A stretch of DNA of 64,000 bases, from the NCBI GenBank assembly GCA_950097015.1, contig CATNEN010000001.1, positions 4,712,001 through 4,776,000 on the forward strand, given 5' to 3'. The notes below the pieces were generated by a model. It ran no database searches. It was not told where the DNA came from and was given only the letters and a program-made list of their open reading frames with translations. The position numbers and the translations under genes are program-made. Shown here piece after piece: positions 3,351 to 60,769 of the stretch (position 1 is the stretch's first letter; each line of letters opens with the position of its first letter). The DNA comes from Macrostomum hystrix. Taxonomy: Eukaryota; Animalia; Platyhelminthes.

Positions 3351-6319
3351 GATTGGAAGCCTGACTGAGGAACTATTAAGATTGGTATCAAAATCTTATT
3401 AATATAGGGACACAAACCTTATTAAGATCCGAATGCATATATTTATTGTATTAGAATGGTACGTACCCAAATATTAGAATGAAAACCCTGGAAAATGAAA
3501 GTCTAAACTTTACAAAATCCACATTTAAGAAGGTAGTAGATTTTGGAAAATTTTGAAGCACTTAAAAGCTTTTTTGGAAAGTATGTGCAGTACATGCTAC
3601 ATACAGTGTATACTGTAACATTTTCATGGTCCACTCAAACTTACAAGGTCTTAACCCTATTAGTTTAGAAAAAGAGTATTTTGCTTGAATGTTTTCAAAA
3701 TAAGCTGTAAAATAACAGTACATGTAGTAAAAATTATATCTAACAGACTAACAGTTAAATAAATAATGAGGACTATTACTTAGGAAATAATAAAAAAATT
3801 AAAAATGTAGGATAGAGCTAAAGAAACAATGTAATGGCCACTTAGTTCCAATAATATTTTACTCCAAATAATACAGTCATGTGGATGGAATGGGTGTATT
3901 TAACAAATGGTTATACTGGTTTACTGGTTAGTTAACTGGTTATACTAACAATAATACAGATTTATTTCCAGTTTAGCATTTTATGAAAACTAAAGCAAGC
4001 TAAACATTGAAATTATATGAAAAATAGTAGTGGTAGAAATATTAAAAATTGCTAGAACATGCTTTAATTTTAGTTGAATTGTGCATATTATAATATAGGT
4101 TTGTAATCAACAATTCAATCATTTTATTCAAGATAACATGCTAAAACAAAGAACAAGAATATATACAACAATAGCTATTAGATTTAATAATATTATTGTC
4201 AAATTTTTCTGTGTAATAATTTATTCTTCTAATACTGGAAATAGAGACATCAATTTTTTATTTGGGCTAGAAATTTAATAGGTAGGCATAGCCTAGGCTA
4301 TAATAGACCTAGCATACATAGCTATTTAAGAAACTTAAATCGAACTAGTAAATAGTAAACTAGTAAAGTCTTATTACTTCATATTATTGAAATTAGGTGA
4401 ATTTTATTCTTAAAAATAAGAAATGGACCAGCTAATATCTACTATCAACACTACTTGGTATTATCCCAAGTCTAGTCAATGAAAATAGCTTATCTTGCAT
4501 TTAAAGAGCTAAGCCTATGCTTATTTTTAATTAGCTAACCAGACAATAATATATTTTTTATTTTTAAACATATTATGAAATTTTAATTTAGGTGAATATT
4601 TTTATAATCACATTGCAAAAGTATACATTATCTATTGGTTACTGTACAGCAACAGTCTGTACTGTATCAATATTCTATGAATAATGATTTTAAGACACAA
4701 CAGTAATTTGCATGGAGCGGAAAAGATCCGCCGCGTATCTCACGTAATTCGATGGGAATTAAAAAAATCGAAGGTATAATGTTACATTTTAAAATAACTA
4801 GAGAAAATGATGCAATAAAGAGTAGTATCACTACCATCTTCGCAGTTCTACTGCTTCAGAGCGTGTTAAAAAAGTTGCTTGCTACGAAATCTTAAATTGG
4901 CCAGCGCTAATACTTATAATATGTTGTTCGTATATTTAAATCAATGAAATGTTAATAAAAGCATATAAAACATAAACCTGTGAAACTATCTATAACATAA
5001 TGCTGCTTAATAAATAGCTTAAACAAATTTGCTTTACTGCAGCTACACCGTGCAACATTTCTTACTTAAAAGTTGGGTTGCTTCGATCGTAGCCAAATTA
5101 TTTGTGTACACAAAAAGCCAGTTTCTTATGTACACACACTAAAAACGCACTCAACGCACACACACACAGTACACTAAAAAGCCAATATATATTATTCTAC
5201 TGCTTGCTATCGACGATCGTACCAACAGTGATCCTAATTAGCTAAAAAAAATACGCATAATTATTGCTTTTTCTGAAGCGTACAGCTGTTACACGAGCCC
5301 CTGTTCGATTTCCTTAATTTAATTTTTTGCCCGCATTATCTACTGAACTTTTACAATCATCTAACTGTACTTAACATTTAAACTAACTACTGCATCACAT
5401 CTAACAACTCTATAGTGTAATGTGGCGTACGTGTGCAGAATTTAAAACAGTTATAAAAAGGGACTGCAAGTGAAAACCAAAAGAGCACAATTTCTTTGAA
5501 ACAGCATGCATCTTAATTCTTTAGAATTCGGTAGCGTTTTACACATTCTCGTAATTAAAATTCTTTCTTTTTGTGTAACACAACCTTGCTGGGACATATA
5601 AACTACTGCATAGTAGCATCTTCTCGTGCGAACTTACTGGAAGGTTCTATTTTTAAAGGCTCAATCTACCCAATTGTAGGAATTTTTTTGCGTTTGAGTT
5701 AAAATAGCAATTTAAGTTTTAAATTTCCCGTCTTGCGCCATGCGGCGCAGGACAAGAATGGTGGTGTACAAACTCTTCTTCGTTTTGTAAATTTACACAT
5801 GCTATAATATATATAGCTGATGCCTTGAATTGTCCCTGAACCAGCGAGATCAACAAGCAGGTCGCGTGCATTAGTACCAACATAACTAGCTTTCTCGACG
5901 TCCCAGAATTTATCCACGCTAATTGCTAGCATATAAAGATATGATGTACTATATATGGGCAGTCGTGTGGTTTGTTGTAGTAAATTGTATTACACTTTTT
6001 TAATGCGGTTCTGGCCATTGTATATGCGTTGCGTATGTATAGATTTTCGTCTGAAATTGAATATTTTTCGTCGATGTATATCGAAATTTACTGCGTTCCA
6101 CTTGAGTGCTGTATATATGATATTCATGAATCGACTATATTGTTGGGATTCTGGGACAGGCCAGTAGGGTTTTATATCTAAACTTTCTAGGTAAACAAAA
6201 ATTTTTTTCTTAGGCAAATTTTGTTTTTTTACGAGATCCACGATATCTAGACAGAAATGTGTCTTGCTTGACTCAGTTTAATAAGCCAAACGCGATTTTC
6301 AGGCATTCAACAGGTGGAA

Positions 6320-14565: not shown

Positions 14566-14599
<34 letters not shown>

Positions 14600-16054
14600 T
14601 GTAGTTTAGCTGATGATTAGCTCGCTGATAGTAGTAATCTGAAAATTTAATTCACGAGATAATTATCGATTAATAAATGTTGCTATGGCTTTTGGAATTT
14701 TGCTGCTTCGTTGTACAGTCAAGACCATAGACTTTGGTCTTGACCAAAGACAAGCTAGATAAGAGGGGATTGCATCCTAGTGGTTAAAAAGTCCGGCTCA
14801 CGACTTGATGGTCGAAGGTTCGATTCTTGACTCCACTGGAACAATTTGTGTCCTTTAGCATGACACTTAACTCTGTATTGCTTCAGTTCGCCCAGTTGTT
14901 AAACCTGGAGTGAGTAATTGAGGGTGTGTGGCGTCCCCCCAGTCCATGGACTGAACAGCCGTACGCAGACTTCAGATGCGCCGCGCAATAGCTGCGGCTG
15001 TGCTGTCGGCTGCACATCTGGCCCAATTAGACATGATCTGCTAGACAAGACCTGTTAGATAAGACGTGTTGGACAAGACCAGTATGAAAAGACCTGTTAG
15101 ACAAAGCCTTTTTGTCCAGACCTGTTAGACAATAACTGTTAGACATGAGCTGTTTGACATGAGCTGTTAGACAAGACCTGCTAGACAAGACCTGTCAGAC
15201 AAGACCTGTTAGACAAGACCTGTTAGACAAGACCTGTTAGACAAGACCTGTTAGACAAGAACTGTTAGACAATACATGTTAGACAAGACCTGTTAGACAT
15301 GAGCTGTTAGACAAGAACTGTTAGACATGAGCTGTTAGACAAGACCTGTTAGACAATACATGTTAGACAAGACCTGTTAGACATGAGCTGTTAGACAATA
15401 CATGTTAGACAAGACCTGTTAGACATGAGCTGTTAGACATGAGCTGTTAGACATGAGCTGTTAGACATGACCTGTTAGACAAGACCTGTTAGACAAGACC
15501 TGTTAGACAATACATTTTAGACATGACACACTAGAGACGAAGTGTTAGACAAGGACATGAAATCTAAACGAACTTGCTAGACTTAAAAAAACGAATTCTA
15601 AATTTTTATTACCTCCTTCATTTGTCGACGATGCACCGGTGGTTTCCAATGCCACCGGCGATAAATTGTCGGCAACGTTGGTAGAGGAAGCGGCTGATAT
15701 TGCAGTAGCCGCAAAATCGTTAACAGCGTTGGATGTAGTTGACATTGTGGCACTGTTGCCATAGTACCAATCATACTGCTGCTGCTGCTGCTGATGCTGC
15801 TGCTGCTGCTGATACTGATAATAGCCATAGCTAGCAGTAGGATAGGTGTTATGACCAAATTTGAGTAGCTGATACGGCTGATAAAACTCGCCTGATTTCT
15901 CAAAATTTGATTCCGTCAGTTGCTTGTTGCTGCCTCCGCCGCCGCCGCCGCCGCCGCCGCCGCTGCCGCCGCTGTTATTGCTGCTATTATAGTAATTTTC
16001 ATAGGCCGCAGTTGATCGATGATAAAAATAGTACTCTGACGCCAGACTGTCCAT
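8874..16054 (-). CDS. NK4: NK4/tinman/Nkx2-5-class homeobox protein, about 447 aa; exons 16054-15613, 14638-14190, 9326-8874
   Basis: Spliced homeodomain [44 protein letters not shown]|[23 protein letters not shown]. Has NK2-class Tyr54 plus the RKPR start and RQxxDxxxEL tail typical of Nkx2-5/NK4. GT-AG introns are phase 1 and phase 0 and consistent. Confidence 0.9.
9567..10108. repeat. 24/25-bp minisatellite GGACATTGGTTCTCTGCTGTTGGG in NK4 intron 2
   Basis: Tandem units visible. Confidence 0.95.
10730..10990. repeat. Purine-rich degenerate repeat (GAGAGATGAAGGGG)
   Basis: Low-complexity GA tract. Confidence 0.75.
11605..12450. repeat. About 14-bp minisatellite TGTATCAATCATT(C/A) in NK4 intron 2
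   Basis: Tandem units visible. Confidence 0.93.
13090..14145. repeat. 24-bp minisatellite AGAATCTAGAACAGATCCCAAAG(C/T) in NK4 intron 2
   Basis: About 44 units, starting about 45 bp from the homeobox donor. Confidence 0.97.
14764..14970 (+). mobile_element. tRNA-derived SINE family A, near full-length copy
   Basis: A-box-like TAGTGGTT, B-box GGTTCGATTC (14817-14826), central TGTGTCCTTTAGCATGACACTTAACTCTGTATTGCTTCAGTTCGCCCAG resembling CORE/Meta-type SINE domains; three further copies in the window. Confidence 0.8.
15040..15530. repeat. 14-bp minisatellite AGACAAGACCTGTT in NK4 intron 1
   Basis: Tandem units visible. Confidence 0.93.
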
Positions 16055-16138
16055 TTCCACACTGTGCTTCTGTGTGTACAGCCGGTGGAACTTCACCACC
16101 TAAAGACCTATAGCCGCTGGCGGAGGTTAGGTAAGTAT

Positions 16139-21697: not shown

Positions 21698-23677
21698 AAC
21701 TATCTTTAGGAACAATTTCGTGCCACAGGAAAAAATTTCCAGAAGCAATGCTTGGCATGTAAAACTCGTTGCTTTGCATTAATAATGCATAACATTATAA
21801 ATAATACACATGCATCTATATTGATAGGAATTTGTTTATCAAATTTATTTAGGTAAACTGACGGCGCACTTGACCGCTCCTGTTGGCTTGGAATCCAGCA
21901 AATAGAGGCAAAAATTTTCTTTTCTTCACATAAATTGCGTTTTTTGTCTTTCGCAGAATTATCCACTCAAAAGTCAATGCTTAATGTAAACAAATTTTAA
22001 AACATTCTTCTTGGACAGGTTTAGGAAGACAGGCTGACTGCTGTGGCGTTTAGGGACGGTATGAAAAACAGGAGGAAATGAATTGCCAAACTATACAGAA
22101 ACTTCTGAAAAAAAAAACAAAATTAAATCGTTAACTTTGAATTCCGATAAATTTGCTTCGTATATTGTTATATAAAATAATTATCGTTACAATTTGTAGT
22201 CCGCTACAAACTTTATTTTTGCCGAGTAACCTAAATCGTTACTTTTCAAACCGCTAACTAATTGTTAACGCTGCTCAATACGATATATAGAAATCAATCT
22301 GATCTCTGAAAAAATGTTACTTAAAAAATGCGATTGACATCTGACAGAACAGAAAAAATTATCATGTCTCTTGAGTTCTACTATAAGTAGCAGAGTTCAG
22401 GAAGCTACAAAAATGCAGTTTTGTAGAGGCTGACTTTATTTAAATTATGTCTAACAGTCATCTTTGGTCCAACAGGGTGTATCACGTTTATTAAGAAAGA
22501 AATAATTATGTCATGTTAATTTTAAAAAGGAAATGCAACCAAACGAGGATCCTAAAGAGAGAGGGCATGCATACTTTCAAACGAAGATGCGAAGGTCGAC
22601 GTGGAATGATTGGTGTTCAACTGCTGAATTTTAGTAAACGAAAGCAATTTTACAATTCGAGAGATCTTGTGATTTCTATTGTTTCATTTTTAACCATAAT
22701 TAAACTCATAGATAATTCTGTGGCTTCTCTATTAAAAGCTTCTCTTCTCTTCTCGTTTCTATCGAAAATGTATGCACCAAGGACCACGAGTAAAAACACG
22801 GGAAACTTGGTTTCATAAAAAATATTTAAGGTAGATTTTCACGGAAAATTGCGAGATGGAACTTTTCACTTTTCATTAAAGTGTTGATAACTTTTCATAG
22901 GAAGCAGATCCAAGGCTGTATATCTTATGCAACATATTGCTTTATCGAATTCTATATATATTAATTCATAAATAATTGATCTTCGTGTTATTTTACTTTA
23001 TTTATTATGAAGCGCAACAGCTAGTCAAAGCCGAAATTGACGAACTTAATTTTAGTCACTTTTTAGTGCTCTTCATCTAGTGGTCCTTGGTATTGCGTTC
23101 TCTAGATATGTTTCTCTAGATATATACTCTAGATGGCAGAATGTGTGTGTTACATGTTACATTTATTCGAGTCATCATTGTTCGAATTTTCAACCCGCTT
23201 TTGTAATTTTGTTTGTTAATTTTAGTTATAAAAGGGTTTTCTTAGATACAATTTGCTTGCTCTTATTTAAACACGTTCTGAAAGATGCATTGGGCACCAT
23301 TAAAAACACACCAGCTAGTTTAAAAAGTAACGATATGAGTGTGTTTGTGTTGGCCTGTTAGCCTACTGTCGTGTCACAGGTCGTGTCATGTCGTGTCGTA
23401 ACAATCATATACAAAAAAAACTTCAGCTTATTTCCGTGTCAATGAAGTTTTTAAAAAAATCAACTAGATAAAAAAAACAATAGACCTGAAAGTTAATTAT
23501 CTGATAGTAAAAAGAGACAAAATTGTGGTATTATTTCATTTCATGAAAATTTCAATTCTAATTTTGTAAAGTTTTGATTATAATTTCAATTATGATCAAT
23601 TATATTAGAGTTTGGAAACAATTTCTTTATTTTTATATTTTTTATTTAAAAAGTCACACTCAAACTTCATTTGTTAT

Positions 23678-23850
23678 GTCCATCCATGGACTTGGGATAC
23701 CATTCCCACCCTCAATTACCCATTTAACAGTTGGGTGAAACTGAAGCAATACAGTGTTAAATGTCTTGCTATAGGAGAAAAATTGTTCCAGTTGAGTTGG
23801 GAATTGAACCCTAACCTTTAAGTTGTGAATTTGATACACTAAACACTAGG
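23678..23850 (-). mobile_element. SINE family A, CpG-eroded copy
   Basis: Aligns by eye to 14764-14970 and 37815-37962; no CpG left. Confidence 0.75.
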
Positions 23851-24065
23851 GGTTGGACAGGATCAAGATTTTCAGGATTGGTCAGGATTAGGATTGGGGT
23901 CTTCATTTATTTCTGGGCAGGATTCAGGATGGGAAGAGCCTATGTCTAAGTGGAGAGTCGGAGTTGGAGACTCCTTTTTGTAAGCTTAAGAAGTCAAGAG
24001 TAAGACTTAGAATTGATAAGTTAGACGAAAAATGTATTTGAGAATGTAATTTTATTTGCTTATAA

Positions 24066-24945
24066 GGTACCTGGACACTTCGTCATCTTATAACTTCATC
24101 ATCCAGATGACAATCTGTCCAATATCTCAGAGGGTGGATGATGAAGAGACTTAGACTTGTGGACACTTCGGGTCCCAGGTCATTTCGGTGACAAGACATT
24201 TCGGTGACACAATTGGTCAGATTGGTGACAACTATTTTTGTACCTAAATATGCTAAAAAACAGCCTTCCATTTTAACTTTGCACACATAAAATATAAATT
24301 AAATAATGCTAAAAGTATTATTATTAATAAGAAGCTGCATTGCTCTGATTAAGTCTGGGTTTTACTTTAAATGAGTTAAATTATTAAATTTTTTAATGAG
24401 TAGTCAATAGTTTCAGTATTTATTCGTTGCTAATTAAATGTGTATAATAATCTTTGTTCAAGTTTTGGATTGACAAGGCAAAGCGCAGGCTTTAAGCAGC
24501 TGCTAGATCGTGGAAGGCTGTTTTCTCAGCATATTTAGGTGCAAAAATAGTTGTCACCGAATAACCAATTATTCTGTCACCGAAATGACTGTCACCGAAA
24601 TGACCTGGGACCACACTTTGTCATCTATAAAACAAAAGTTTTCAAAGTTAGAACATAACCACCCTTCCTCACCTTGTGTTGGCACCTATCTTTCAACTCT
24701 TATATTGAAATAAGTTTTGACACCTCTTTTTGACAATTTAGAGTGTGAAGTGTGTTCACACCTCTGCCCCACCACCACACCCTCACTTTATTGATGACGA
24801 ACTTGATTGCTTGTTATTAGTAGATAATGAACTGACCAAACTTTAAAGTATGCCAATTGACTAGATGACGAAGTGTCCTACCTTCCAAGTGGATGACAAA
24901 GTTGTAAGATGACGAAGTTGTAAGATGGCGAAGTGTCTAGGATCC
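24066..24945. mobile_element. MITE (outer) with GG...CC ends and 8-bp TSD
   Basis: TIRs GGTACCTGGACACTTCGTCATCTTATAACTTC / rc GGATCCTAGACACTTCGCCATCTTACAACTTC; perfect TSD GCTTATAA at 24058-24065 and 24946-24953. Confidence 0.88.
24171..24612. mobile_element. MITE (inner, nested) with about 100-bp TIRs
   Basis: TIR GGTCCCAGGTCATTTCGGTGAC...CAGCCTTCCA mirrored at 24511-24612; TSD ACACTTCG (24163-24170) / ACACTTTG (24613-24620). Confidence 0.88.
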
Positions 24946-25091
24946 GCTTATAAATATAAATATTTAATAGGCCTAGTATTATAGAATTTCAGTTGTATTT
25001 TTGGTAGGTTTATGTCTATAATCTGATTGTAGTTATTAAGCATTATATATATTATGTGTCATAAAATATAACTAAAATTATATTATTAACT

Positions 25092-25536
25092 TATAGGCAG
25101 TTGTTATTTGTCCGGTTAACCAGATAAATAGCCATTTGATTATTCGTCTGGTTAACTGAGTTATAACTAACTAAGTTATAAGGGGTTGTAGCACTACCAC
25201 AAGAACCTCTATCATTTGTAAGATAAAATAATAAACAAGCTGCAAAAGGACAGTCATTCAGATTTGAAGTTTGTCTCTCAAATTATTTTTGCTTATCAGC
25301 TAATTAAAAAAATTAAAACCTTATTCCAGAAATTCCGTTGTTTCACGGACTAACTTATTTCAAGGGTATAGTTTGGTCTTTGTGAGGTCAAGACTCAAGA
25401 TGGCTCTCAGCAGGGCAAGAGTGATCCTTGGGAGGATCATTGCTCCTGCTTGTTGAAAGGGGAGAAATTAAGTCCTTTGGTGATTAACCGGTTAACCAGA
25501 CGAATAATCAAACTGGACAAATAACAACTACCTATA
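25092..25536. mobile_element. MITE-like element with TIR TATAGG(C/T)AGTTGTTATTTGTCC
   Basis: About 26-bp terminal inverted repeat plus a second inverted block TTTGATTATTCGTCTGGTTAAC; no clear 8-bp TSD. Confidence 0.7.
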
Positions 25537-25721
25537 TCCATAATGATAAATTTGTTTTTAATTAATGATGACTATATATAAATTGTAATATATATATATA
25601 TATAATGCTATAAGTATAGGCCTATAGTTTATTTGTTACTTGTTACTATTAAAAGACTAAGTTTGGAGTTCAAAAAGTAGTGCAAATCAAATTTTCATTT
25701 TCAGCAAATCAAATATTAATA

Positions 25722-26052
25722 CTAATGTTTGTATCTTGCACCTAGGTCATTGAGCTTGATTCTGTGGCAAGGTCACTTTTATTTGGGATGCTGCCATGGA
25801 GAAAAGGCTTAGGGGCTTATTGTGTAGTTTATACCCTTAGGACAATCTTTAGGGCATAGGGAGAGTGTACACTACCTGACAATGAGAAACTCAGGGCAGA
25901 TGTACACACTTGTATGAGTGTATGCCTGCATATGTTATCTGTATGCATGTGCACCCAGGAGTCAACAAAATGGACAAAATTACATTCTCACTTGTTGTAG
26001 GTCTAGTGTCACCAACTGACATGTCATTATCCATAGCCCTCCTGTTATTATT
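25722..26052 (+). mobile_element. SINE family B, CpG-eroded copy
   Basis: Colinear with the reverse complement of 36705-37035 over about 330 bp, including the ATT tail. Confidence 0.8.
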
Positions 26053-27035
26053 TTAATTTTTATATTCTAATTAATTCAATAGTAGTTACTATTACCTTTA
26101 ATCATTGGCTAGTAAAATGGATTTCCTTAGCTTCCCACACTATTAAAACAACAATAGCTACATACTAAGTTTTTTTATTGGGTTAATTTAATGCAAAATA
26201 AATATTCTGGTTTGTTTAAAGAAAAAATTATATTAAACACCAAAAATTTGTTGTTCATTGATTTGATTGCTGAAAGTAATCACACAATTTTTAATTATGT
26301 AAATTCAAGAAATTAACTATCAAGTAACAGGAAAGAGATAGTTATAATGTAGCACTGCTATTGATCCTTAACCACTTTAAATGGAATCATGTCATTCTGA
26401 GAAATAATGTCATTGATTATGTATATGTTTAATGTGTTCCAGGCATTTCTGCAGTGTCAACATGAGATTCACATGAAAGAAAGCAGAAGAATGAAGCAGT
26501 AACTGTTATGGTTCGCTAGGAAAAAAATACAGTACTGTGGCAATAAGTCTAATAAGTGTTCCAGAAGCCTCCCAGTGCATTCTTGGTTGCACCCAGGAAA
26601 TCAATTGGTTTTGATCCTGATTGGATGGATAGGATTGGATGTGAAAAATATATTATTTGCTACTTGCTTGCTCATGGGCAATGGTAGGTTCTTGGCCCAT
26701 TAATAATGCCAGAATGACTATTTTGGGTTATGTTGTAGCTAATATGTGAGTTCTACCAGTGAATTAATGAAAAAAAATTTCAAATTAGATATTAAAGCAA
26801 CGACACAAACTATTTTTCCAGCATCCAATAACCAGTGCAAACCTATAGGAACTTTGTCGCTTGCCATACAAAACACCTGCCGCTTACTGTTTTTTTCTCT
26901 AATAAATCTTTCAAGTTGAATAGTAATATATATTCAATGTTTTATTTGCAGCTGCTCCTATATAAACAATCTGTTTTCAAGCTCTAAGCATTGCTTTTGT
27001 TTTACCCAACAACAAGAAGGAAGTCTCGGGTAAAA

Positions 27036-30000
27036 ATGGCTGCCGTCAAAGATTCTCCACCAAAAACAGCTGAAACTCGCAGCAGCGTGTTCAAGGCTGT
27101 GTTCTTTACTCTGCTGTTGGACCTGCTGGGATTCACGTTAATTCTGCCACTATTTCCTTCAATATTGGATCACTTTGCAGCTCTGGGAGATGTGAGTTGT
27201 ACTTTCCTACTGAATTCTTTAAGTCTCTCAAGTCGCTTATCTCATCTTCAATCAATAACTCAAACAAAATCCTTACTCTCCCTCAGTCTCTAATCTCACC
27301 ATTCAGTCTCTAATCTTACTCTCAGTATCTAATCTCACCATTCAGTCTCTAATCTTATTCTTAGTCTCTAATCTCATCCTGAATCTCTAACTCCCTCAAA
27401 GTCCTAACTCACCCAATGTGTCTAATCTTATTCTTAGTCTCTAATCTCACCATTCAGTCTCTAATCTCACCATTCAGTCTCTAATCTCACCATTCAGTCT
27501 CTAATCTCACCATGCAGTCTCTAATCTCACCATTCAGTCTCTAATCTCACCATTCAGTCTCTAATCTCACCATGCAGTCTCTAATCTCACCATCACTCTC
27601 ATCTTCTCTAATCTCACCATCAGTCTCAAATCACTCAAAGTCTATAATCTCACTCGAGTTCTCTAATCTCACCATTCAGTCTCTAATCTCACCATTCAGT
27701 CTCAACCCTCTCCGCGCAGGAGCAGCCGCTATTTAGCGAGTTCAAGCGCGCTTCACAGCGGTTTCGTGTCAGCCTTGGCATCCCGGATTTGCCTCAGCAG
27801 CAGCAGCAGCCGTCTAGAAGTTGGGATTCTGTTCTATTAGGCGGATTACTCGGCTCATTGTTCTCCATATTGCAGTTTATTTCGGCGCCACTAGCCGGCA
27901 GTCTATCAGATTACATTGGCCGTTTGCCAGTACTAACAATGTCACTAATTGGCACAGCTGTAGCCTATTCAGTTTGGGCCGCATCTGCCAGTTCATTTGG
28001 CGCATTCCTTGCCTCCAGAGTGATAGCCGGCCTGGCTAGATGCAGTGTCACAGTCTGCACAGCGTCTGTTAGCGACGCTTCCGACACTGAGCACAGGGGT
28101 CGGGGCATGCTCTGGATTGGTCTAGCGTTTAGTTTGGCATTCTCAACCGGACCAATCATTGGCGCCGCCCTGGCCCATTCTATGCGCTCTAATCCTGCTG
28201 GCAATTTCGCTTATCCAGCCCTGCTGGCACTGATGTTCGCTTTGCTGGCTCTGATTGTAGCTAGATTGAGTCTGTCAGAGACTGTTCAACAAGCTGGCAG
28301 ACTCAATGACAGCTCAACAAACACTGGTCGGTTCTATGGCGCTATTAGACTGTTGAATCCTTTCAGATTGTTTGCATTCGACGCTATGCCTTCGGCTGGA
28401 CATTGGGGTGAGAAGTGTAACAGTGTTTAATAGTGTTATAAGTTAATTAATAATTTTATTAATACCCTTAAGGTTTAGGGTTCGAAAACTAGTAAAAATT
28501 TGTGCCATAGGTCCTGGGTTTGAATCTCCTTCAAGGTTAGCCGCAAAGGCTGGGCGCATTTAACTGTAGGAATATGAGAGATGAGACAGGGTAGAGTTGA
28601 GATACGGGAGAGATGAGACACAGGAGAGATGAGACAGGGTAGAGTTGAGATACGAGAGAGATGAGACACAGGAGAGATGAGACAGGGTAGAGTTGAGATA
28701 CGAGAGAGATGAGACACAGGAGAGATGAGACACGGGAGAGATGAGACACGGGAGAGTTGAGATACGAGAGAGATGAGACACAGGAGAGATGAGACAGGGT
28801 AGAGTTGAGATACGAGAGAGATGAGACACAGGAGAGATGAGACAGGGTAGAGTTGAGATACGAGAGAGATGAGACACAGGAGAGATGAGATAGGGTAGAG
28901 TTGAGATACGAGAGAGATGAGACACAGGAGAGATGAGACAGGGTAGAGTTGAGATACGAGAGAGATGAGACACAGGAGAGATGAGACAGGGTAGCGTTGA
29001 GATACGAGAGAGATGAGACAGGGTAGAGTTGAGATACGAGAGAGATGAGACACAGGAGAGATGAGACAGGGTAGAGTTGAGATACGAGAGAGATGAGACA
29101 CAGGAGAGATAACACACGGGAGAGATAACACACGGGAGAGATAACACACGGGAGAGATAACACACGGGAGAGAACACACGGGAGAGATGAGACACGGGAG
29201 AGATAACACACAGGAGAGATAAGACATGGCTGAGATAACACACGGCAGATAACACACGGGAGAGATAACACACGGCAGAGATAACACACGGCAGAGAACA
29301 CACGGGAGAGATAACACACGGGAGAGAACACACGGGAGAGAGAACACACGGGAGAGATGAGACATGGCTGAGATAACACACGGCAGATAACACACGGGAG
29401 AGAACACACGGGAGAGAGAACACACGGGAGAGATGAGACAGGGTAGAGTTGAGATACGAGAGAGATGAGACAGGGTAGAGTTGAGATACGAGAGAGATGA
29501 GACACAGGAGAGATGAGACAGGGTAGAGTTGAGATACGAGAGAGATGAGACACAGGAGAGATAACACACGGGAGAGATAACACACGGGAGAGATAACACA
29601 CGGGAGAGATAACACACGGGAGAGAACACACGGGAGAGATGAGACACGGGAGAGATAACACACAGGAGAGATGAGACATGGCTGAGATAACACACGGCAG
29701 ATAACACACGGGAGAGATAACACACGGCAGAGATAACACACGGCAGAGAACACACGGGAGAGATGAGACATGGCTGAGATAACACACGGCAGATAACACA
29801 CGGCAGAGATAACACACGGCAGAGATAACACACGGCAGAGAACACACGGCAGATAACACACGGGAGAGATGAGACACGGCTGAGATAACACACGGCAGAT
29901 AACACACGGCAGAGATAACACACGGCAGAGAACACACGGGAGAGATAACACACGGCAGAGAACACACGGGAGAGATAACACACGGGAGAGAGAACACACG

Positions 30001-33000
30001 GGAGAGATGAGACATGGCTGAGATAACACACGGCAGATAACACACGGCAGATAACACACGGGAGAGATGAGACACGGCTGAGATAACACACGGCAGATAA
30101 CACACGGCAGAGATAACACACGGCAGAGATAACACACGGCAGAGAACACACGGGAGAGATAACACACGGGAGAGAACACACGGGAGAGAGAACACACGGG
30201 AGAGATGAGACATGGCTGAGATAACACACGGCAGATAACACACGGCAGATAACACACGGGAGAGATGAGACACGGCTGAGATAACACACGGCAGATAACA
30301 CACGGGAGAGAACACACGGGAGAGATAACACACGTGAGAGAACACACGGGAGAGATAACACACGGGAGAGAACACACGGGAGAGAGAACACACGGGAGAG
30401 ATGAGACATGGCTGAGATAACACACGGCAGAGAACACACGGGAGAGAACACACGGGAGAGAACACACGGGAGAGATAACACACGTGAGAGAACACACGGG
30501 AGAGAAAACACGGGAGAGATAACACACGGGAGAGAAGACACGGGAGAGATAACACACGGGAGAGATGAGACACGGGAGAGATAACACACGGGAGAGATAA
30601 CACACGGGAGAGATAACACACGGGAGAGATAACACACGGGAGAGAACACACGGGAGAGATAACACACGGGAGAGATGAGACACGGCTGAGATAACACACG
30701 GCAGATAACACACGGGAGAGAACACACGGGAGAGAACACACGGGAGAGATAACACACGGCAGAGAACACACGGGAGAGATAACACACGGGAGAGAACACA
30801 CGGGAGAGAGAACACACGGGAGAGATGAGACATGGCTGAGATAACACACGGCAGATAACACACGGGAGAGAACACACGGGAGAGAGAACACACGGGAGAG
30901 ATGAGACAGGGTAGAGTTGAGATACGAGAGAGATGAGACAGGGTAGAGTTGAGATACGAGAGAGATGAGACACAGGAGAGATAACACACGGGAGAGATAA
31001 CACACGGGAGAGATAACACACGGGAGAGATAACACACGGGAGAGATAACACACGGGAGAGAACACACGGGAGAGATGAGACACGGGAGAGATAACACACA
31101 GGAGAGATGAGACATGGCTGAGATAACACACGGCAGATAACACACGGGAGAGATAACACACGGCAGAGATAACACACGGCAGAGAACACACGGGAGAGAT
31201 GAGACATGGCTGAGATAACACACGGCAGATAACACACGGCAGAGATAACACACGGCAGAGATAACACACGGCAGAGAACACACGGCAGATAACACACGGG
31301 AGAGATGAGACACGGCTGAGATAACACACGGCAGATAACACACGGCAGAGATAACACACGGCAGAGAACACACGGGAGAGATAACACACGGGAGAGAACA
31401 CACGGGAGAGAGAACACACGGGAGAGAGAACACACGGGAGAGATGAGACATGGCTGAGATAACACACGGCAGATAACACACGGCAGATAACACACGGGAG
31501 AGATGAGACACGGCTGAGATAACACATGGCAGATAACACACGGCAGAGATAACACACGGCAGAGAACACACGGGAGAGATAACACACGGGAGAGAACACA
31601 CGGGAGAGAGAACACACGGGAGAGATGAGACATGGCTGAGATAACACACGGCAGATAACACACGGCAGATAACACACGGGAGAGATGAGACACGGCTGAG
31701 ATAACACACGGCAGATAACACACGGCAGAGATAACACACGGCAGAGATAACACACGGCAGAGAACACACGGGAGAGATAACACACGGGAGAGAACACACG
31801 GGAGAGAGAACACACGGGAGAGATGAGACATGGCTGAGATAACACACGGCAGATAACACACGGCAGATAACACACGGGAGAGATGAGACACGGCTGAGAT
31901 AACACACGGCAGATAACACACGGGAGAGAACACACGGGAGAGATAACACACGTGAGAGAACACACGGGACAGATAACACACGGGAGAGAACACACGGGAG
32001 AGAGAACACACGGGAGAGATGAGACATGGCTGAGATAACACACGGCAGAGAACACACGGGAGAGAACACACGGGAGAGAACACACGGGAGAGATAACACA
32101 CGTGAGAGAACACACGGGAGAGAAAACACGGGAGAGATAACACACGGGAGAGAAGACACGGGAGAGATAACACACGGGAGAGATGAGACACGGGAGAGAT
32201 AACACACGGGAGAGATAACACACGGGAGAGATAACACACGGGAGAGATAACACACGGGAGAGAACACACGGGAGAGATAACACACGGGAGAGATGAGACA
32301 CGGCTGAGATAACACACGGCAGATAACACACGGGAGAGAACACACGGGAGAGATAACACACGGGAGAGAACACACGGGAGAGAGAACACACGGGAGAGAT
32401 GAGACATGGCTGAGATAACACACGGCAGAGAACACACGGGAGAGAACACACGGGAGAGATAACACACGTGAGAGAACACACGGGAGAGAACACACGGGAG
32501 AGATAACACACGGGAGAGAAGACACGGGAGAGATAACACACGGGAGAGATGAGACACGGGAGAGATAACACACGGGAGAGATAACACACGGGAGAGATAA
32601 CACACGGGAGAGATAACACACGGGAGAGAACACACGGGAGAGATAACACACGGGAGAGATGAGACATGGCTGAGATAACACACGGCAGATAACACACGGC
32701 AGATAACACACGGCAGATAACACACGGCAGATAACACACGGCAGATAACACACGGCAGAGATAACACACGGGAGAGATAACACACGGCAGAGATAACACA
32801 CGGCAGAGATAACACACGGCAGAGATAACACACGGCAGATATAACACACGGCAGAGATAACACACGGCAGAGATAACACACGGGAGAGATGAGACATGGC
32901 TGAGATAACACACGGCAGATAACACACGGCAGATAACACACGGCAGATAACACACGGCAGATAACACACGGCAGATAACACACGGGAGAGATAACACACG

Positions 33001-34511
33001 GCAGAGATAACACACGGCAGAGAACACACGGGAGAGAACACACGGGAGAGATAACACACGGGAGAGATAACACACGGGAGAGATAACACACGGGAGAGAA
33101 CACACGGGAGAGATAACACACGGGAGAGATGAGACATGGCTGAGATAACACACGGCAGATAACACACGGCAGATAACACACGGCAGATAACACACGGGAG
33201 AGAACACACGGGAGAGATAACACACGGGAGAGAACACACGGGAGAGATAACACACGGGAGAGATGAGACATGGCTGACATAACACACGGCAGATAACACA
33301 CGGCAGATAACACACGGCAGAGATAACACACGGCAGATAACACACGGCAGAGATAACACACGGCAGAGATAACACACGGCAGATAACACACGGGAGAGAT
33401 AACACACGGGAGAGATAACACACGGGAGAGAACACACGGGAGAGATAACACACGGGAGAGAACACACGAGAGAGAGAACACACGGGAGAGATGAGACATG
33501 GCTGAGATAACACACGGGAGAGAACACAAGGGAGAGATAACACACGGGAGAGAACACACGTGAGATATAACACCTAATAGTCCTTGTGGTAACACGCTTG
33601 ACTTCAGCGTTAAAGGTCGCGAGTTCGAATCATCAATGAATTTTCCCATCCGCAGAGCGCAGCCAAATGCGTCGCATAGCGTCGGTGTACTTTCTGTTCT
33701 TGACTCTGTTCTCCGGCCTAGAGTTCACTCTGCCTTTCTTGGCCCATCTGCGGTTGGGCTTCAGTCGCGGCCAGCAGGGTGTCATGTTTCTATTCATTGG
33801 CATTGTTAGCGCACTACTGCAAGGCGGCCTGGTGCGCAGACTGAAGGCTGGGTCCGAACGCAAGCTGGCTAGCTTAGCCATAGCAGCGCTCCTTCCAGCT
33901 GGCTTGTTGCTAGGCAACGCAACTAGTTACACAATGTTCTATTCTGGCGTTCTATTATTCTCTATGTGCTCCGCCTGTCCCGTGCCAGCATTGACCGCAT
34001 TGCTGTCCCAGTTGGCGCCGCTAGAGTCGCAGGGCCAAGCACTTGGCGTGCTGCGCTCTCTGGGCTCCTTGGCTCGCGCTGTTGGACCACTGCTGGCCTC
34101 ATTGGGTATGTGTGAAAAAATCCTAGTCCGATATTCATTACTAGCCTACTTTTAGTAGACTAAAAAATCCTATCTTTTTATTTATAAAATGATAACTTGC
34201 CTACTCACAGTAGGCTAAATCTAATATTTCATCAAGTTCTTCTAAGCATTATAAGCACCCAATATGGAATTAGTTAACTAAAAAATTGTAACACAAATTC
34301 GCTACTTGCCTACTTGTACTAAGAGGGATGATTAAGAAGTATTCTTTCTCGAGTTTTGAATTTTTATTCACCCCTCGTTTCTCCATTAGCATTCTGGCTC
34401 TACGGGCCGACAATGAGTTACAGCATCGGCGGCCTAGCGGTCATTGTGCCGCTAATGCAACTCCTGCTTAAAGTTCAACAGCCTTCGGCAGCGGAGTTGA
34501 AAACCGATTAA
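27036..34511 (+). CDS. MFSD10: Major facilitator superfamily domain-containing protein 10 (TETRAN-like), about 471 aa; exons 27036-27191, 27720-28407, 33656-34105, 34390-34511
   Basis: VFFTLLLDLLGFTLILPLFP, SVLLGGLLGSLFSILQFISAPLAGSLSDYIGR (MFS motif A), LFSGLEFTLPFLAHLR and QGQALGVLRSLGSLARAVGP match MFSD10. GT-AG phases 0/1/1 are consistent; stop TAA 34509-34511. Confidence 0.92.
27285..27705. repeat. 20-bp minisatellite CAGTCTCTAATCTCACCATT in MFSD10 intron 1
   Basis: Tandem units ending about 15 bp before the acceptor. Confidence 0.92.
28575..33570. repeat. 5-kb compound 14/16-bp minisatellite (GAGATGAGACACGGGA / GAGATAACACACGGGA) in MFSD10 intron 2
   Basis: Mosaic of related monomers; same family as the arrays at 1290-1570 and 55640-56300. 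Confidence 0.97.
33575..33632 (+). mobile_element. tRNA-like SINE head remnant
   Basis: GTGGTAACACGCTTGACT...GGTCGCGAGTTCGAATC (A/B-box layout) with no acceptor stem. Confidence 0.5.
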
Positions 34512-35749
34512 CATGCTTTGTCTAATGCTTACAACATGCTTATATCTTATTTTGAACTTTTTAATAGAATCACGTGAATCATTTTAATCGCTGATTGGTT
34601 TTGAAATCTCTTCTTGATTACTGGCTTGGCTGTAAAATTCTGATATTAATTTTGTTTTTGTGTATTTTGTTAAGCGTTTGACACATTCTTATATTTATAC
34701 TCGCATATTCGCTTTACTCTACTAGATTAGTAGTCTCTAGAATATATTATATAATCAATTTCAAAATTTGTCTTCCAGTTTGCTTGAAAAAACTATTTAT
34801 GCTTCGTCATACCTAGACATTGAGTTGCAATTTCGCTTACTGATGATGCACATGACCAGATTTACTATAAATATCATCAGGTGCTAAAAATTAATGTATT
34901 TAGGCATTTTCCTAGAAATTTAACAACGATCTAAAAAAGAACGTTTAAGATATTTTTTTGATCTTTTAAACGAAAATTAAATTCTATTCTGCTGTGCTAA
35001 ATATTTCTATTTACTTTTGCTTCTAATTGCATACTAGTGAAAGACTACAATTACACTTTTATCCGGACTTCTTCACATATTTTAACAAGTTGCTTACTTT
35101 AAATTAAATTAGACAATTCAAAATGACAGATTGGCTGAAAATTCAGATTTATAGTATTTTTTTTTATTTTAATAAGTTTTTGAAAAAATAATTTTGCACT
35201 ACTTAACAAGAATAGCAGTAGCATAGATAGTAAATAATGTCATATCTTTATAGATTCGTGCATCAAAATAGTTCAAATTCAAATTCTTAAATGAATCAGT
35301 GGAAGATTGTAAGATTCAACAATCAGTGTTCGAAGCCACACCGCGATCTGCCAGATTTTTGGTTGCTAAGTGTACAAGCCTACACAATAAATGCTGTAAT
35401 ATTGATTGTGAGATAGTGTTGGTGGCACAGATAGAAAAATCACATTTGCAAAAATCATCCTACCTAGAAACAAAACAGTATAAAAAATTATAACTAAAAA
35501 AGTTGCAAACGAACCAGTGTTGAATTTGTGGAGAAAAACTTTATAAAAATCGATCAGTTCTTTAACCTACAAAAATATCAAACTACATAATACGGCAGCG
35601 AAATTCTACATCTTACAAATGATACAAGTTTTTTCTAGATTCAAGGATACATTAAAAATGTTTCAGTCAACAATATTACAGAGAATACAAAAACTTGTTC
35701 TGAAAGAAGACAAAAAACGAAACGTCAGCAACGAAACAGATTAGCAGTA

Positions 35750-36318: not shown

Positions 36319-39300
36319 CTAGATTTCAGCGTAGGTCCCGTAGCCCCGCTGTCGAAGTAGGCGCACCCGGTAGACATCGAATGGCACCAGACGCTTGGCG
36401 AAGGCCACCACAGCCACCAGGCTGAGCAGTACCAGCCCTGAGCTGGTCAGAAACGAAGCCTGCGGCCCGTAGCCGGCGAACAACAGGCTGATGGTGATGG
36501 GACCGATGCAGCGGGCGAGACTGCCGCCTCCTGTCAGGATGCCCATCCAAACACCCTGCGGGTAGGGGGTGGTGACGCCATCTATGATAATCCGAATTGG
36601 GATTTCAACTTTCTAATCCCAAAATTGGGATTTTTTAGTAATATACACAGATTGGGATTTCAGATTGGAAATTTTAGAATTGTGAATTTGGGTAATAAGA
36701 AAAAATAATAATTGCAGGAGGGCTGCGGGAAGTGGCACATCATTTGGTGACACTAGACCCGCAGCCAGCGAGGAGGCAATTCTGCCCATTTCGCTGACTC
36801 CTGAGCACACACGCACAGATACTATGCGCAGGCACACGCTCACACATGTGTGTACATCTGCCCTGACTTTCTTATAGTCAGGCAGTGTGCACTTCACTGT
36901 GCCTAGGAGGTTGGCCCTCAAGGACGTAAATTGCACGACAATCCCCCAAGCCTTCTCTCCGCGGCTGCGCCCCAAATGAATGTGGCCTCGCCGCAGAATC
37001 GAACTTAGGGACCTTGGTGCGAGAGGCAAACGCGATAACCGCTCTGCACCGACCCCCCTATAAATTTGGCTAAAAATCCTCAAATTGTGATTTGGGCTAG
37101 GATCTGAGATGTTTAAACTTGGGATTTTTCGAATATCCTATTCCTATTTTAAGGATCGAAGGCCTTTAAGATCCATTTTTTTGGCTTTAATATTCTTGAA
37201 TATGGATTTCAGTAATAAAATAAAAAAGGGATGTAGACTTTAAGATCCCCAATTTTTTATCTTGGCTTTGAAATCCTCAAACTAGAGACTATTCGAACTA
37301 AGATTCCCATTTTAGGATATCCTTCTCTAATTTGGATTTCGTTCTTAAGATCCCCAAAGTGGGATTATTTTTAAATTTGGATTCTCAAAAAGTGAACTCA
37401 CCTGTCTAATTGGACCGAGAATCTTAGTCAGCACAGACGACACCAGCACAATGGCAATAGGATATCCGATAGAGTGCACAGCGATTGCAATAATTCCCAG
37501 GGACAATTTCACAGCCGGCACATGATAGCACCAGGCCAGGTTGGGAGAGCAGCCACCAGAATGGTCTTCGAATCTGACAGCCAGACTGCCGGCCTCAGAG
37601 CTGGTCATATTGGCTATGAAATATGGGCGCAGAGGTGCAGGCGGCCCGAACCAGGGACTGATGAGCATGAACGCAGCGAAGGTTAGAGTCAGCGCGCCAA
37701 TGATCAGGTCGTTCTCTGTCACACTGCATGGATAGAAAGAAAAAGAAAATTTTCTTTTATTTTTCTCTTGCATTTACATAATAATAGTAGTCATACTAAT
37801 AATAATTGTACTTGATTGCACGTACAGTCCATGGACTGGGGGGACGCCACACCCACCCTCAATTATCAAGCAATGCAGAGTTAAGTGTCTTACTAAAGGA
37901 CACAAATTGTTCCAGTGGAGTCGGGAATCGAACTCCCGACCTTCGAGTCGTGAGTCGGACGTAATAAAAACTCGATTGATACTACTAAGCTTCCGTTTAA
38001 AAAGCAACTAAAAACGCGTTTAATACTACTTACATCATTTCATTTAAGTCTTTACATACTAGCGAAAAAAGTAAGACGAATAGAATTTTGTCACCATATT
38101 TTTATTATCAACTGTGAAAAAGGAAAAGAACTTATAGGATTCGAACCAACGACCCACCGAGTCCCGAAACTCACATTCTAGCCCAGAATCTGATTGACAC
38201 AAATGACAGCATTGAGATAAAGCCGCAGACAGCCAGTGCGATGCCATTGTACAGTGACGCCTGCTCCTTGTTCCAAGCGAACATTACCTGACTTAGCGGT
38301 GTCATGATACTGAAATACAATGTGAAAGTGACAGGCCATTTGGTATAGTGCGCAACAATTCGCTGCCATAAAGTAAGTTTCACTGAGCTCAAAGTCCTTC
38401 ACAATCTTAATAGTCATGCAGCTACTGCAATCTGCACTTTGCTGCCTTATCAGCCTTCGTTTCTTAGTCTCTGGAAATTTTTTTTCAATTTCAAGGCAAA
38501 GGTTCATTTTCAAAAAAAAAATTTCTCAAGCTTGCAAACTAACTGACCTCTTTGTGCCCATTTTTGCATTACCAATTAAGAAATTGTAGCTTGTAGGCAA
38601 GTTAGACTGGGCTTACAGTTAACAGGTAACTTCTCCATTGAATAGCGTGGATGAAAATTACAGCTAGCAACATACCCCTGTTAACTGACCTAGCTAGCTT
38701 AATCTTTTGCTACTATTCTAGACATTTCTGGACTATCATTTTAATTTGCTTCGATTCTAAAAGACGATTCTGTCTGGTTCGATTCTATAATACGATTCTG
38801 TCTGGTTCGATTCTATAATGCGATTCTGTCTGGTTCGATTCTATAATACGATTCTGTCTGGTTCGATTCTCTGGTTCAATTCTATAATGCGGATTCTGTC
38901 TGGTTCGATTCTATAATGCGATTCTGTCTGGTTCGATTCTATAATACGATTCTGTCTGGTTCGATTCTATAATGCGATTCTGTCTGGTTCGATTCCATAA
39001 TACGATTCTGTCTGGTTCGATTCTAGAATACGATTCTGTCTGGTTCGATTCTATAATACGATTCTGTCTGGTTCGATTCTAGAATACGATTCTGTCTGGT
39101 TCGATTCCATAATACGATTCTGTCTGGTTCGATTCCATAATACGATTCTGTCTGGTTCGATTCTATAATACGATTCTGTCTGGTTCGATTCCATAATACG
39201 ATTCTGTCTGGTTCGATTCCATAATACGATTCTGTCTGGTTCGATTCTATAATACGATTCTGTCTGGTTCGATTCTATAATACGATTCTGTCTGCTTCGA

Positions 39301-57462: not shown

Positions 57463-57528
57463 CTGCTATAAAAAGTATTTTCCTTGCTTGAGCAGACAAA
57501 CTATTGTCAGATGATTCACAATGCTATG
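57463..57528 (-). other. Putative non-coding 5' UTR exon of TACC
   Basis: Acceptor TTTTCCAG and donor CAG|GTAAGA; contains an in-frame stop relative to Met57066. Confidence 0.5.
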
Positions 57529-58310
57529 CTGGAAAAGTTGTTGTAAATTATAGATTTCAAACTTACTAAGATAGGGCTTTGTTTATTTTCTAAGAAATAT
57601 TTAAATTTTGTTTGAATACACTTTGAATTCTTATAATGCACCAATTTTTGGTTTTTATGCACCAAATGCACCGAAAATATAACAGTTATAATGAAGTGAA
57701 GAAGGGAAGCGAAAAATAAGTATAAATACCCGAGAGAGAAGGCAGGAAACTAACGTTTTGTCTTGACCTTGAGAACAGCATTCAGAATAAGAAAGCTTGA
57801 ATATTGAAGTGATGGCCTTAAAGTTATCTGAAGAGACATCGAAAAAGAGAAGTAAAACAAAAGCTGTAAACATAGATCCACTGGTAAAGCTCAAGATGGA
57901 CTGAAGACTGAATTTAAGATTGAATGAAGAGTAATTGAAGAGTGATAAAGAAGGATAAAAGACAGATAAAGAGTGATAGAGAGTGATAAAGACAGATAAA
58001 GACTGATAAAAAGTACTTATAGAAATAATACAGTAAAGTTATAATTAAGAAGTGAATATAGAGAATAAATATTGGCCATATTGAATAATGCTACCAGATT
58101 AAATACATAAGTACGCTACCAATTGAATTTGAAATAAGAAAGTACATAACGTGAGTAAACTGAAGACACTCATAAGTTTGATATAAAGGCAGTATTTTAA
58201 TAAGTTTATAAGTGCTACGACAACTTTGGTAACAGCAGTAGGATTTAAAAATACAAGAAAATAGCCCTACAACAACTTTGGTAGCATTATTAGGATTAAA
58301 AGTTTATTAA

Positions 58311-58853
58311 CAGTATAACTACCAAGGGGGGGAGGGAATTTTCCTCCCCACTGACAATTTTTTTGCTGAACAAGAAACAGGTCGCCAGCTCTTCAGACTG
58401 TCAAGATATTCAATGTTTCTGGCCAAAGGTCTGATTTTTCCCATAAGAGCTAGTGTATTTCATACACCCCTATACAGGAATTTGCAATATGACTTAGTGC
58501 AGCCATTCCAGACCTTCAAACTTTATCAGCATGTCACCCGAATGTGCCTGCATTAGATCTCTGTTTTTGGTAGTCACCTACCTTTATCTAGATGGACTGC
58601 GGGACCTTCAAATGCAAAAAAATGTGGAAATAGGCCACTCTGGACACCCTGATGCGAATTTCTAAAATCTCACTGCTGAAGCTTAAATATTAGGCACAGC
58701 TCAACTACAGTACACCATCGCCTAGTCTGTCAACCAATCAGTCAGCACCTTACGCGGTTAGCTTTCAGGTGCTGCCAAAAATGTTCTCAGGTTGGGGAAA
58801 TTCCCCCCCCTTGGTATAAAAATGGGCGGCAAAATGGCTTGGTAGTCCTACTG
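58311..58853. mobile_element. TTAA-specific MITE (piggyBac-like target), 543 bp
   Basis: TTAA on both sides (58307-58310, 58854-58857); TIR CAGTATAACTACCAAG / rc CAGTAGGACTACCAAG; extra asymmetric internal inverted repeat TACCAAGGGGGGG. Confidence 0.82.
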
Positions 58854-60769
58854 TTAAGAAGTCAGGCCTACAACATGTTATAATGTCAAATAAGAGTAAA
58901 TTATTTCAGCAATATCTTAACTGCTATAAATAGTATTTTCCTTGCTTGAGCAGACAAACTATTGACAGATGATTCACAATGCTATGCTAGAAAAGTTGTT
59001 GTAAATTATAGATTTCAAACTTAACAATATTATGACTTTGACTTGTGTTCATCAAAAATATGGCAACTATATTTTATCCATCTAGCTATAGCTAACTTTT
59101 ATTTGAAAAACTAAAAAAATGATAATAACTTGTTATAACATAACAGTACACATGTTTATTGTACATTTTTGCTAGTATTCATATGATAATAACAAAAAAG
59201 CAAAATCAACTGCTCAATCCTAACTACTATTTATTTTAGTCATCCTAAAAAAGTCTTGACCACTAACTTCATATCCATACTAGCTAAGCTAATGACTAAT
59301 CATTAATTTAATAAACTTTAGACAATGGCAAAAATAAGAATTTAGTGAGTAAGTTAGCAAATTAAAAATTTAAATGCTTATTTATTCTTAAAGAGAAATT
59401 TATTTACATTTTTCATAACCATAGCTGCATAGCATAGCTATAGGCCTGACTGATTTCTCAATCTATAGGCCTAGGCCTACTTGATAGCCATATACAAGGA
59501 TACATGGGCTCTAGATAGACCTAGAGGAAGGCAGGTCTATATTTTTATAGATGTCAAGTTAGAGCACTAAAAAATATAACAATTTACAAAGTAGGACCTA
59601 GGTAATTATTTTTTTAAAGCTACCACATCAAACCTTTTAATAGTGCACTTTCCTTATATTTGGAGCATGAACAATAATATATGAAGGCCTACTGACTGAC
59701 AGTGCTCTGTGACTGTGACATGTGACAAATGATATGTTTTTTTGTCTTTGCAGAACTCTCCACAGCTGGAGGCCGAATGAGTAAGCTGGTTATTTTGGGT
59801 TGATTCTTAAACGAAACAGATTATGTATCATATGTATGATGGAGATGACCTCAGCCAGCACAACTACAACTAGACCAACACTACACCTCCTACACCAAAG
59901 CAACGATATTTATCTAAAATTTAAAATTAAATCAGGAATAGAAACTACGCGTGCAAAATTTCAGCGTTTGATCGCCGTGTCGAAATTATTCATGTATCTT
60001 CATAATTTTTTGTTTTAAAAGTTACGCACTTATTCACAAAGCACGAGTATTTAAAAGCGAACCATTCTTAGAAACACATGAACTTTTCAGAAATCCAAAT
60101 GAATGCTGCATGCAAAGTGCAAAAATATTTCATTGATTACTGTATGCGTCGAATATATTGTATGCGATTGGATATATGATACATTAATGTACAATTTAGA
60201 CAATTAGGTCTAATTTGGTTTGTACATTAACCGGAGATATGCCACCATTACAAGAACAATTTTCATGCATAATTTAAAATACTAACCTTCGAAGTTGTGT
60301 TCATAAATATATAAGGCCACGGTGCAGAAATCTGCACATCTGTAAAACATACTGATGTACAACACCTGTAACTAGAGAATCGCGAGAATAATTGCTGCGT
60401 TAAATACAGATGAGATTTTTTGGTGCAATTTATGAAAATATACGTCCCACTTGAAGTCACAATTTTACTGACAAGGCAGGCAGTACTATACACACGCATG
60501 GACAGGGTACCTGCGCATGAAAAATGGAAGTTTTTACATGAAAAATGTCGATAGTTTGACGTATGAAAAGTATACATAAAAACGACTGTTGTAAATAATA
60601 CATCTTACGGATTAACAGTGAGTTTTTTAAGTTGGCACCCACTTACTGATTATTAAAGCAACGAATTTTAACAATTACAAGCGATTATAGAGCACGTGCA
60701 TACTGTGATACATCTACATGTATCAAAGTTTATCAACAGAGCAACGTTAAGCCGGGAAAAGCCAGAAAT

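Follow-up and report, generated by a model that had tools for sequence, protein, structure and literature searches.

CpG erosion ahead of the trans-splice site of MFSD10 in Macrostomum hystrix, a probable footprint of cytosine methylation

We describe a domain of about 3.4 kb in the flatworm Macrostomum hystrix, lying immediately ahead of the transporter gene MFSD10, from which most CpG dinucleotides have been lost. The window analysed is a stretch of 64,000 nucleotides (contig CATNEN010000001.1, positions 4,712,001 to 4,776,000, forward strand), and all coordinates below count from its first letter. Four observations are directly supported: the loss is by transitions specific to CpG, it exceeds what the age of the affected copies accounts for, MFSD10 carries a spliced leader (SL) site just downstream of the domain, and the window holds three zones of like polarity. 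The explanation that we favour, with a probability of about 0.6, is germline CpG methylation that covers only the opening 1-3.5 kb of a housekeeping transcription unit, here likely the discarded outron.

CpG loss in the domain ahead of MFSD10

The features on which the analysis rests are as follows (o/e, observed/expected ratio of CpG; HMM, hidden Markov model; SINE, short interspersed nuclear element; X1, a DNA sequencing run).

21700..23436, no strand: CpG-rich, mostly single-copy flank, putative unmethylated promoter side; o/e 1.04, X1 depth ~60
23437..26800, plus strand: CpG-depleted domain 5' of the trans-splice site, putative outron of MFSD10; o/e 0.23, HMM segment 23440-27025
26053..26800, no strand: single-copy desert core; 1 CpG against 16.9 expected, X1 depth 68-90
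23680..23850, minus strand: SINE-A-like copy A2, all CpG gone; 9/9 relative to A3, 8/8 in a three-way alignment
25722..26054, plus strand: SINE-B-like copy B2, all CpG gone (16/16); family letters restore CpG at 25930 and 25947
36705..37058, minus strand: SINE-B-like copy B1, CpG intact by pairwise alignment, inside an intron of the second MFS gene
37815..37962, minus strand: SINE-A-like copy A3, CpG intact (0/7 lost) by pairwise and three-way alignment
14752..14960, plus strand: SINE-A-like copy A1, a third control in an intron of the Nkx homeobox gene (assigned by its homeodomain), CpG kept at 6/8 by alignment
24060..24960, no strand: MITE1, high-copy inverted-repeat element with aligned arms, CpG partly lost (o/e 0.42, with the nested element counted in); depth 15,000-85,000 against ~60 for single-copy DNA
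24171..24612, no strand: MITE2, nested younger inverted-repeat element of 442 bp, arms identical at 91/98 positions, most CpG retained
25050..25570, no strand: MITE3, high-copy inverted-repeat element, partial CpG loss (o/e 0.43)

Between 23440 and 26800 there are 24 CpGs in all, or 20 against 87.4 expected once tandem repeats are masked, and the resulting o/e of 0.23 stands against 1.04 just upstream of an abrupt 5' edge at ~23437. GpC shows no such deficit across the domain (o/e 0.97), which marks the loss as one of CpG specifically. An initial annotation of this DNA had called the domain CpG-free, overlooking the inverted-repeat elements in which the remaining CpGs mainly lie (21 of the 24 fall in 24081-25501); the domain is CpG-poor rather than CpG-free, and the erosion itself is real. 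Its count of only one CG in 25503-26800 is exact (at 26514, with 32.2 expected from C and G content). Single-copy DNA is the most depleted class in the zones, with 1 CpG against 16.9 expected in the core ahead of MFSD10 and 0 against ~20.2-21.9 in that of the zone upstream of TACC described below. Non-coding DNA outside the zones has an o/e of 0.7-1.3 and exons one of 0.72-0.96, with the exception of MFSD10 exon 1 at 0.44.

Two families of SINE-like elements, each with a copy inside the domain and at least one outside, allow the changes to be read letter by letter. Pairwise alignment of SINE-B at 36705-37058 with its copy at 25727-26054 gives a loss of 16/16 CpGs (7 TG, 7 CA and 2 TA), so that both strands are struck, and that of SINE-A at 37815-37962 with 23680-23850 a loss of 9/9 (4 TG, 4 TA and 1 TT); the annotation had given about 16 and about 8, respectively. 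C is replaced by T at 30/48 CpG sites, which is near saturation, and at 36/199 other C (Fisher p 4e-9), so that CpG loss exceeds general transition divergence, as the deamination of 5-methylcytosine (5mC) that the annotation had proposed would predict. The probability of losing 25/25 CpGs at the non-CpG rate is 5e-10, and by our own arithmetic the loss implies a CpG rate at least ~5 times background. A preference for CpA, as in processes resembling repeat-induced point mutation (RIP) or of a non-CG kind, is not seen in these copies (CpA 16/73, CpC and CpT together 20/126, p 0.34). RIP-like or transposon-targeted hypermutation was considered and rejected, since single-copy cores are the most depleted and CpA is not preferred.

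The two pairs had been put forward as built-in controls, and this holds in part. The intact copies do keep their CpGs, but the eroded copies are somewhat older, with ~2 times the non-CpG change, so that the intact ones are imperfect controls not matched in age. In the three-way SINE-A alignment of 114 columns the private non-CpG changes number 6 in A1, 10 in the eroded A2 and 5 in A3, with CpG losses of 2/8, 8/8 and 0/7 (A1 and A3 together 2/15). This comparison, which is blind to sites lost identically in both intact copies, rejects a model in which branch lengths vary freely under one CpG rate (likelihood-ratio test 9.8, p 0.002).

Elements A and B are short, non-coding and present in high copy number, as SINEs are, with X1 bin depths of up to 2,700 (A) and 294,000 (B) against ~60-68 for single-copy DNA. 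ARAGORN returned 0 tRNA genes and Rfam no tRNA hit for the head of either element, and no target duplication was identified for them; motifs resembling A and B boxes were seen by eye against the consensus. The letters of the families as a whole, taken from X1, restore a CpG in 10 of 63 classified difference rows, each at 71-99% of depth; these rows comprise 40 (the best 40 of 165) and 23 (from the best 40 of 244), the latter after leaving out 17 rows at 60195-62783 that are run X2 differences in genes outside the zones. Among changes from window to family, A>G and T>C predominate (49 vs 15 in the table that gave the 40 rows; 44 vs 25 in the one that gave the 23). These letters indicate that the element families mostly retain the CpGs that the zone copies lost, which supports the proposal that position rather than transposon identity governs the loss. 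Given the likelihood-ratio test, the P value of 5e-10, the third copy A1 and the family letters that keep CpG genome-wide, age alone is rejected.

The inverted-repeat elements are the least depleted part of the zones (o/e 0.3-0.43). MITE2 is nested in MITE1, as seen from an empty-site joint 24162-24613 in which seven X1 contigs skip 450 letters, and the two copies of its 8-bp target duplication differ by a single CG/TG change. Erosion is complete in the SINE-like copies, partial in MITE1 and MITE3 and slight in the younger MITE2, so that loss depends on both position and residence time.

The spliced leader site, two further zones and neighbouring genes

The start of MFSD10 and the two other zones are described by the following features.

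26952..27192, plus strand: MFSD10 exon 1; SL attached at 26952 behind an AG acceptor, reading frame opening with the ATG at 27038
27722..28412, plus strand: MFSD10 exon 2, o/e 0.73; 68% identity to M. lignano protein P0001, Pfam MFS_1
57528..59773, minus strand: second zone, upstream of TACC; CpG-free core 58829-59773 with 0 against ~20.2-21.9 expected, abrupt distal edge, HMM
58320-58816: eroded inverted-repeat element in the TACC zone, by family letters
3463..4717, minus strand: third zone, upstream of the septin gene (Pfam Septin); 1 CpG against 21.7 expected, abrupt distal edge at 4717, HMM

The gene name given in the annotation is supported, with the other 73 of 74 protein matches of exon 2 at 31-49% identity, including rodent MFSD10 at 40%. 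Library information accompanies none of the 9 sequencing runs listed; X2, X3 and X4 were judged to be of RNA type from their spliced or exon-limited contigs. One X2 contig starts at 26951 with 22 loose letters that match, letter for letter, the 3' part of the SL published for M. lignano (PMC8629364) and runs on from 27192 into exon 2, and an X3 contig ends there too, with a further 22 letters past that point; the SL letters themselves come from one contig of one run. Sections of PMC10468722 describe the Macrostomum SL as highly conserved within the genus. This puts the trans-splice site of MFSD10 at 26952 and makes the domain outron, promoter or both, outside the coding sequence. The annotation had placed it correctly 5' of the MFSD10 coding exons and had missed both that this position is upstream of an SL site and that two further polarised zones exist. 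Because the upstream gene, Nkx, is on the opposite strand, MFSD10 probably has its own promoter. RNA-type contigs within the domain (X2 at 23668-24042, differing by 4 letters and 4 gaps over 379; X3 at 26416-26575, with 0 differences) give a weak hint of its transcription. Upstream of the edge there is also a low-depth X2 piece at 22485-22663, and the lack of X2 cover on 26188-26935 counts neither for nor against. A further X2 contig lies at the edge itself (23297-23491) and was considered as a hint of the start site; given its 9 differing letters and 5 gaps, and two variants in common with a second DNA contig, it was set aside.

A two-state HMM applied to the non-tandem DNA of the window returns exactly three low-CpG segments, 1851-4711, 23440-27025 and 58221-59773, lying ahead of septin, MFSD10 and TACC, respectively (septin and TACC by Pfam). 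In 250-bp bins ordered by gene orientation the o/e falls across one bin at the gene-distal edge from 1.84 (septin), 1.03 (MFSD10) and 1.25 (TACC) to 0.00, and in all three zones it climbs back gradually toward the exons. The distance from the edge to the first acceptor is ~2.2-3.6 kb, inflated in part by insertions. The septin gene has its presumed acceptor near 1153 and its ATG at 1103. The cores at MFSD10 and TACC are single-copy (X1 depth 68-101). At TACC, contigs of X3 and X4 run 89 letters past the exon 56483-57089, a length that would correspond to a 66-bp exon at 57463-57528 plus a 23-letter SL piece and so would put the SL site at 57528. In summary, zones are found at MFSD10, TACC and septin and none at the Nkx, Dpy-30-motif, orphan and second MFS genes, breadth of expression being assumed from gene family.

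The short first exon of TACC lies in a segment (57417-57565) that has a 149-bp duplicate, 95% identical, at 58875-59023 in the desert core; the duplicate has an altered donor, a retained acceptor and its sole CpG changed to CA, and could be an alternative SL acceptor. The palindrome AGGCCT has 7 of its 13 non-tandem occurrences in the MFSD10 and TACC zones (24969, 25618, 58864, 59442-59473 and 59685) and none in the septin zone. GGCC is enriched 2.3-fold in the deserts, and is not a simple product of CpG decay. A literature search on an 8-letter motif enriched in the zones gave nothing relevant.

Directly upstream of TACC, at 60134-61596 on the minus strand, is a single-exon, expressed and probably SL-spliced gene of ~257 amino acids, for which no Pfam or Atlas hit was obtained; it is head-to-head with the Dpy-30-motif gene, within 480 bp. 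An operon of this orphan gene, TACC and the second MFS gene is possible. The two MFS transporter genes are arranged tail to tail at 26952-46036. For the second the name MFSD8 had been offered; it was identified only as an MFS_1 transporter, and a PDB search gave no confirmation. The homeobox gene at 8877-16100 on the minus strand, which we take to be of NK2 type, has a Pfam Homeodomain with an intron within it, and several introns filled with minisatellites; upstream of it stretches a long region that holds neither genes nor a CpG desert. Minisatellite arrays of 0.4-5 kb occupy many introns (28576-33573, 38750-41911 and others). Related forms of a 16-bp unit are found at 1331-1574, 28576-33573 and 55637-56291, and the latter two adjoin the end of a shared dispersed element, which suggests that the arrays were spread by a mobile element. 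Box motifs resembling those of tRNAs, seen by eye in introns and spacers at 28480-28560, 33574-33640, 38125-38175 and 47500-47545, are probably the heads of other SINE families.

Proposed methylation behind the promoter and the alternatives

Deamination of 5mC is the textbook source of CpG to TG or CA transitions, and from this established chemistry we regard it as very probable that the footprint derives from 5mC at all. The placement of the zones would be explained if RNA polymerase II started in the CpG-rich, unmethylated DNA near 23300-23440 and if DNMT3 and DNMT1 methylated the DNA immediately downstream in germ cells. There 5mC would deaminate, giving C-to-T transitions, and any insertion into the zone would shed its CpGs over time, the old SINE-like copies wholly and the younger nested element partly; methylation would taper off ahead of the coding exons. 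Sections of three reviews (PMC9246332, PMC10658182, PMC11292947) report that M. lignano retains DNMT1 and DNMT3 with low 5mC and describe genome-wide methylation patterns in free-living flatworms as unknown.

Several points weigh against this explanation. The RNA pieces in the MFSD10 domain are of low depth, come from one sample each and could lie on either strand, and no X2, X3 or X4 contig lies on the TACC desert core, a lack that is no evidence either way. Only ~360 bp separate the end of the CpG-rich orphan gene (61596-60134) from the TACC edge downstream of it, and the TACC zone could therefore be intercistronic, as in an operon. Two of the five known or presumed SL acceptors have no desert: that of the orphan gene at 61595, where the o/e is 1.14 and the outron at most 480 bp, and that of the second MFS gene near 46036, which lies 2.4 kb past the TACC stop and may hold a downstream operon position, with which the absence of a desert would agree. 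Neither the Dpy-30-motif gene (RNA from 62076, o/e 1.04) nor Nkx has a desert. Within the septin segment the tandem array 1964-3314 retains 18 CG, and neither of the two contexts listed shows a TG or CA variant; the arrays of downstream introns likewise retain CpG, but these homogenise and are weak controls. Finally, the sample is three genes in one window, and the P values of the deserts are for stretches chosen post hoc.

If the outrons were short, the methylated zones could instead lie 5' of the start sites, as promoter methylation does in a centipede and a mealybug. The zones are outside every mature exon and the TACC core has no RNA contig, both of which such an arrangement would accommodate. 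It is nevertheless unlikely, as all three zones have their sharp edge on the side away from the gene and border CpG-rich DNA there, RNA-type contigs occur within the MFSD10 domain, and MFSD10 and TACC are expressed, while passages of PMC7343188 associate arthropod promoter methylation with low expression. We consider it distinctly improbable that a nest of at least five insertions drew silencing that then spread to neighbouring DNA. Two SINE-like and three inverted-repeat elements do lie in the domain, with one more of the latter kind in the TACC zone, and methylation exclusive to transposons is known in a trans-splicing animal (an excerpt of PMC12460157); however, depletion is strongest in single-copy DNA and weakest in the inverted-repeat elements, the same families retain CpG elsewhere, and spreading would not yield a single abrupt gene-distal edge every time.

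Two further accounts concern time. The zones might have been methylated in an ancestor and no longer be so, and here the retention of most CpGs by the youngest element, MITE2, and the fact that the methylation we propose is read from DNA sequence both count in favour. The young target duplication and the ~150-bp duplicate (95% identical) have each lost one CpG in the zone copy, and CpGs have not been regained in the 1-kb cores; the former are single events and both lines are thin, yet we judge a fossil footprint very improbable. That the eroded copies are just older, under uniform CpG decay or AT bias genome-wide, is scarcely credible and largely refuted. The ~2-fold excess of non-CpG change in these copies and the surplus of C>T (36/199) over T>C (12/223) at non-CpG sites would agree with it; the two tests given above (p 0.002 and P 5e-10) do not, nor does the o/e of non-coding DNA outside the zones, which speaks against uniform decay.

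Relation to known methylation systems

The chemistry is that of textbooks, the placement is unusual, and the feature is real. The closest relative may be the 5'-biased gene-body methylation of arthropods, which in Planococcus citri and Nicrophorus vespilloides is concentrated in the first three exons (a section of PMC7343188). As there, the zones would involve the leading part of some genes only, presumably broadly expressed ones, and appear to spare tissue-specific genes and most transposons. In contrast to that exon-enriched pattern, the signal in M. hystrix, deduced from mutation, is in non-coding DNA before a trans-splice site, and coding exons keep an o/e of 0.7-1.0 (0.44 in MFSD10 exon 1). 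Because the coding-exon feature is absent we file the zones as a variant of 5'-biased gene-body methylation and not as a member. The mosaic gene-body methylation of annelids and molluscs, as outlined in passages of PMC11292947 and PMC10658182, is likewise specific to CpG, found in transcribed housekeeping genes, and strikes transposons when they lie inside a methylated region; it covers gene bodies generally, whereas in our case the introns and exons further downstream are rich in CpG and erosion is confined to a front zone of 1-3.5 kb. Promoter methylation in Strigamia maritima and P. citri (PMC7343188, in part) resembles our zones in lying 5' of the first annotated exon, but it goes with low expression and transposon methylation, and in M. 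hystrix both MFSD10 and TACC are expressed, with CpG kept in the repeat families. The chaetognath Paraspadella gotoi, in the portion of PMC12460157 that describes it, is also a trans-splicing, spiralian-related animal without ordinary gene-body methylation; it targets transposons by identity, while in our zones position is the dominant factor and the strongest effect falls on single-copy DNA. In the literature that we searched on Macrostomum methylation or 5mC and on outrons together with DNA methylation, the pattern is mapped in no free-living flatworm; bisulfite details in the primary 2015 M. lignano paper could bear on the point.

We tentatively propose, from the letters of a single window, that gene-body methylation in Macrostomum may have shrunk to a sharp-edged band running from the housekeeping promoter, mainly on the outron, which would spare coding sequence CpG mutation; an abrupt CpG edge might thus mark the hidden start sites of trans-spliced genes or operons from sequence alone. 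Since the outron is discarded, mapping the promoters of trans-spliced genes is difficult (as noted in part of PMC3333190), and such an edge would locate them. The zones would offer a third state between whole-gene methylation, as in annelids and molluscs, and its loss, as in planarians and parasites, and they bear on the link between trans-splicing and loss of gene-body methylation proposed in PMC12460157, in the portion concerned. For Macrostomum, a stem-cell model whose group has an unmapped methylome, they provide a concrete prediction of where its low 5mC would sit.

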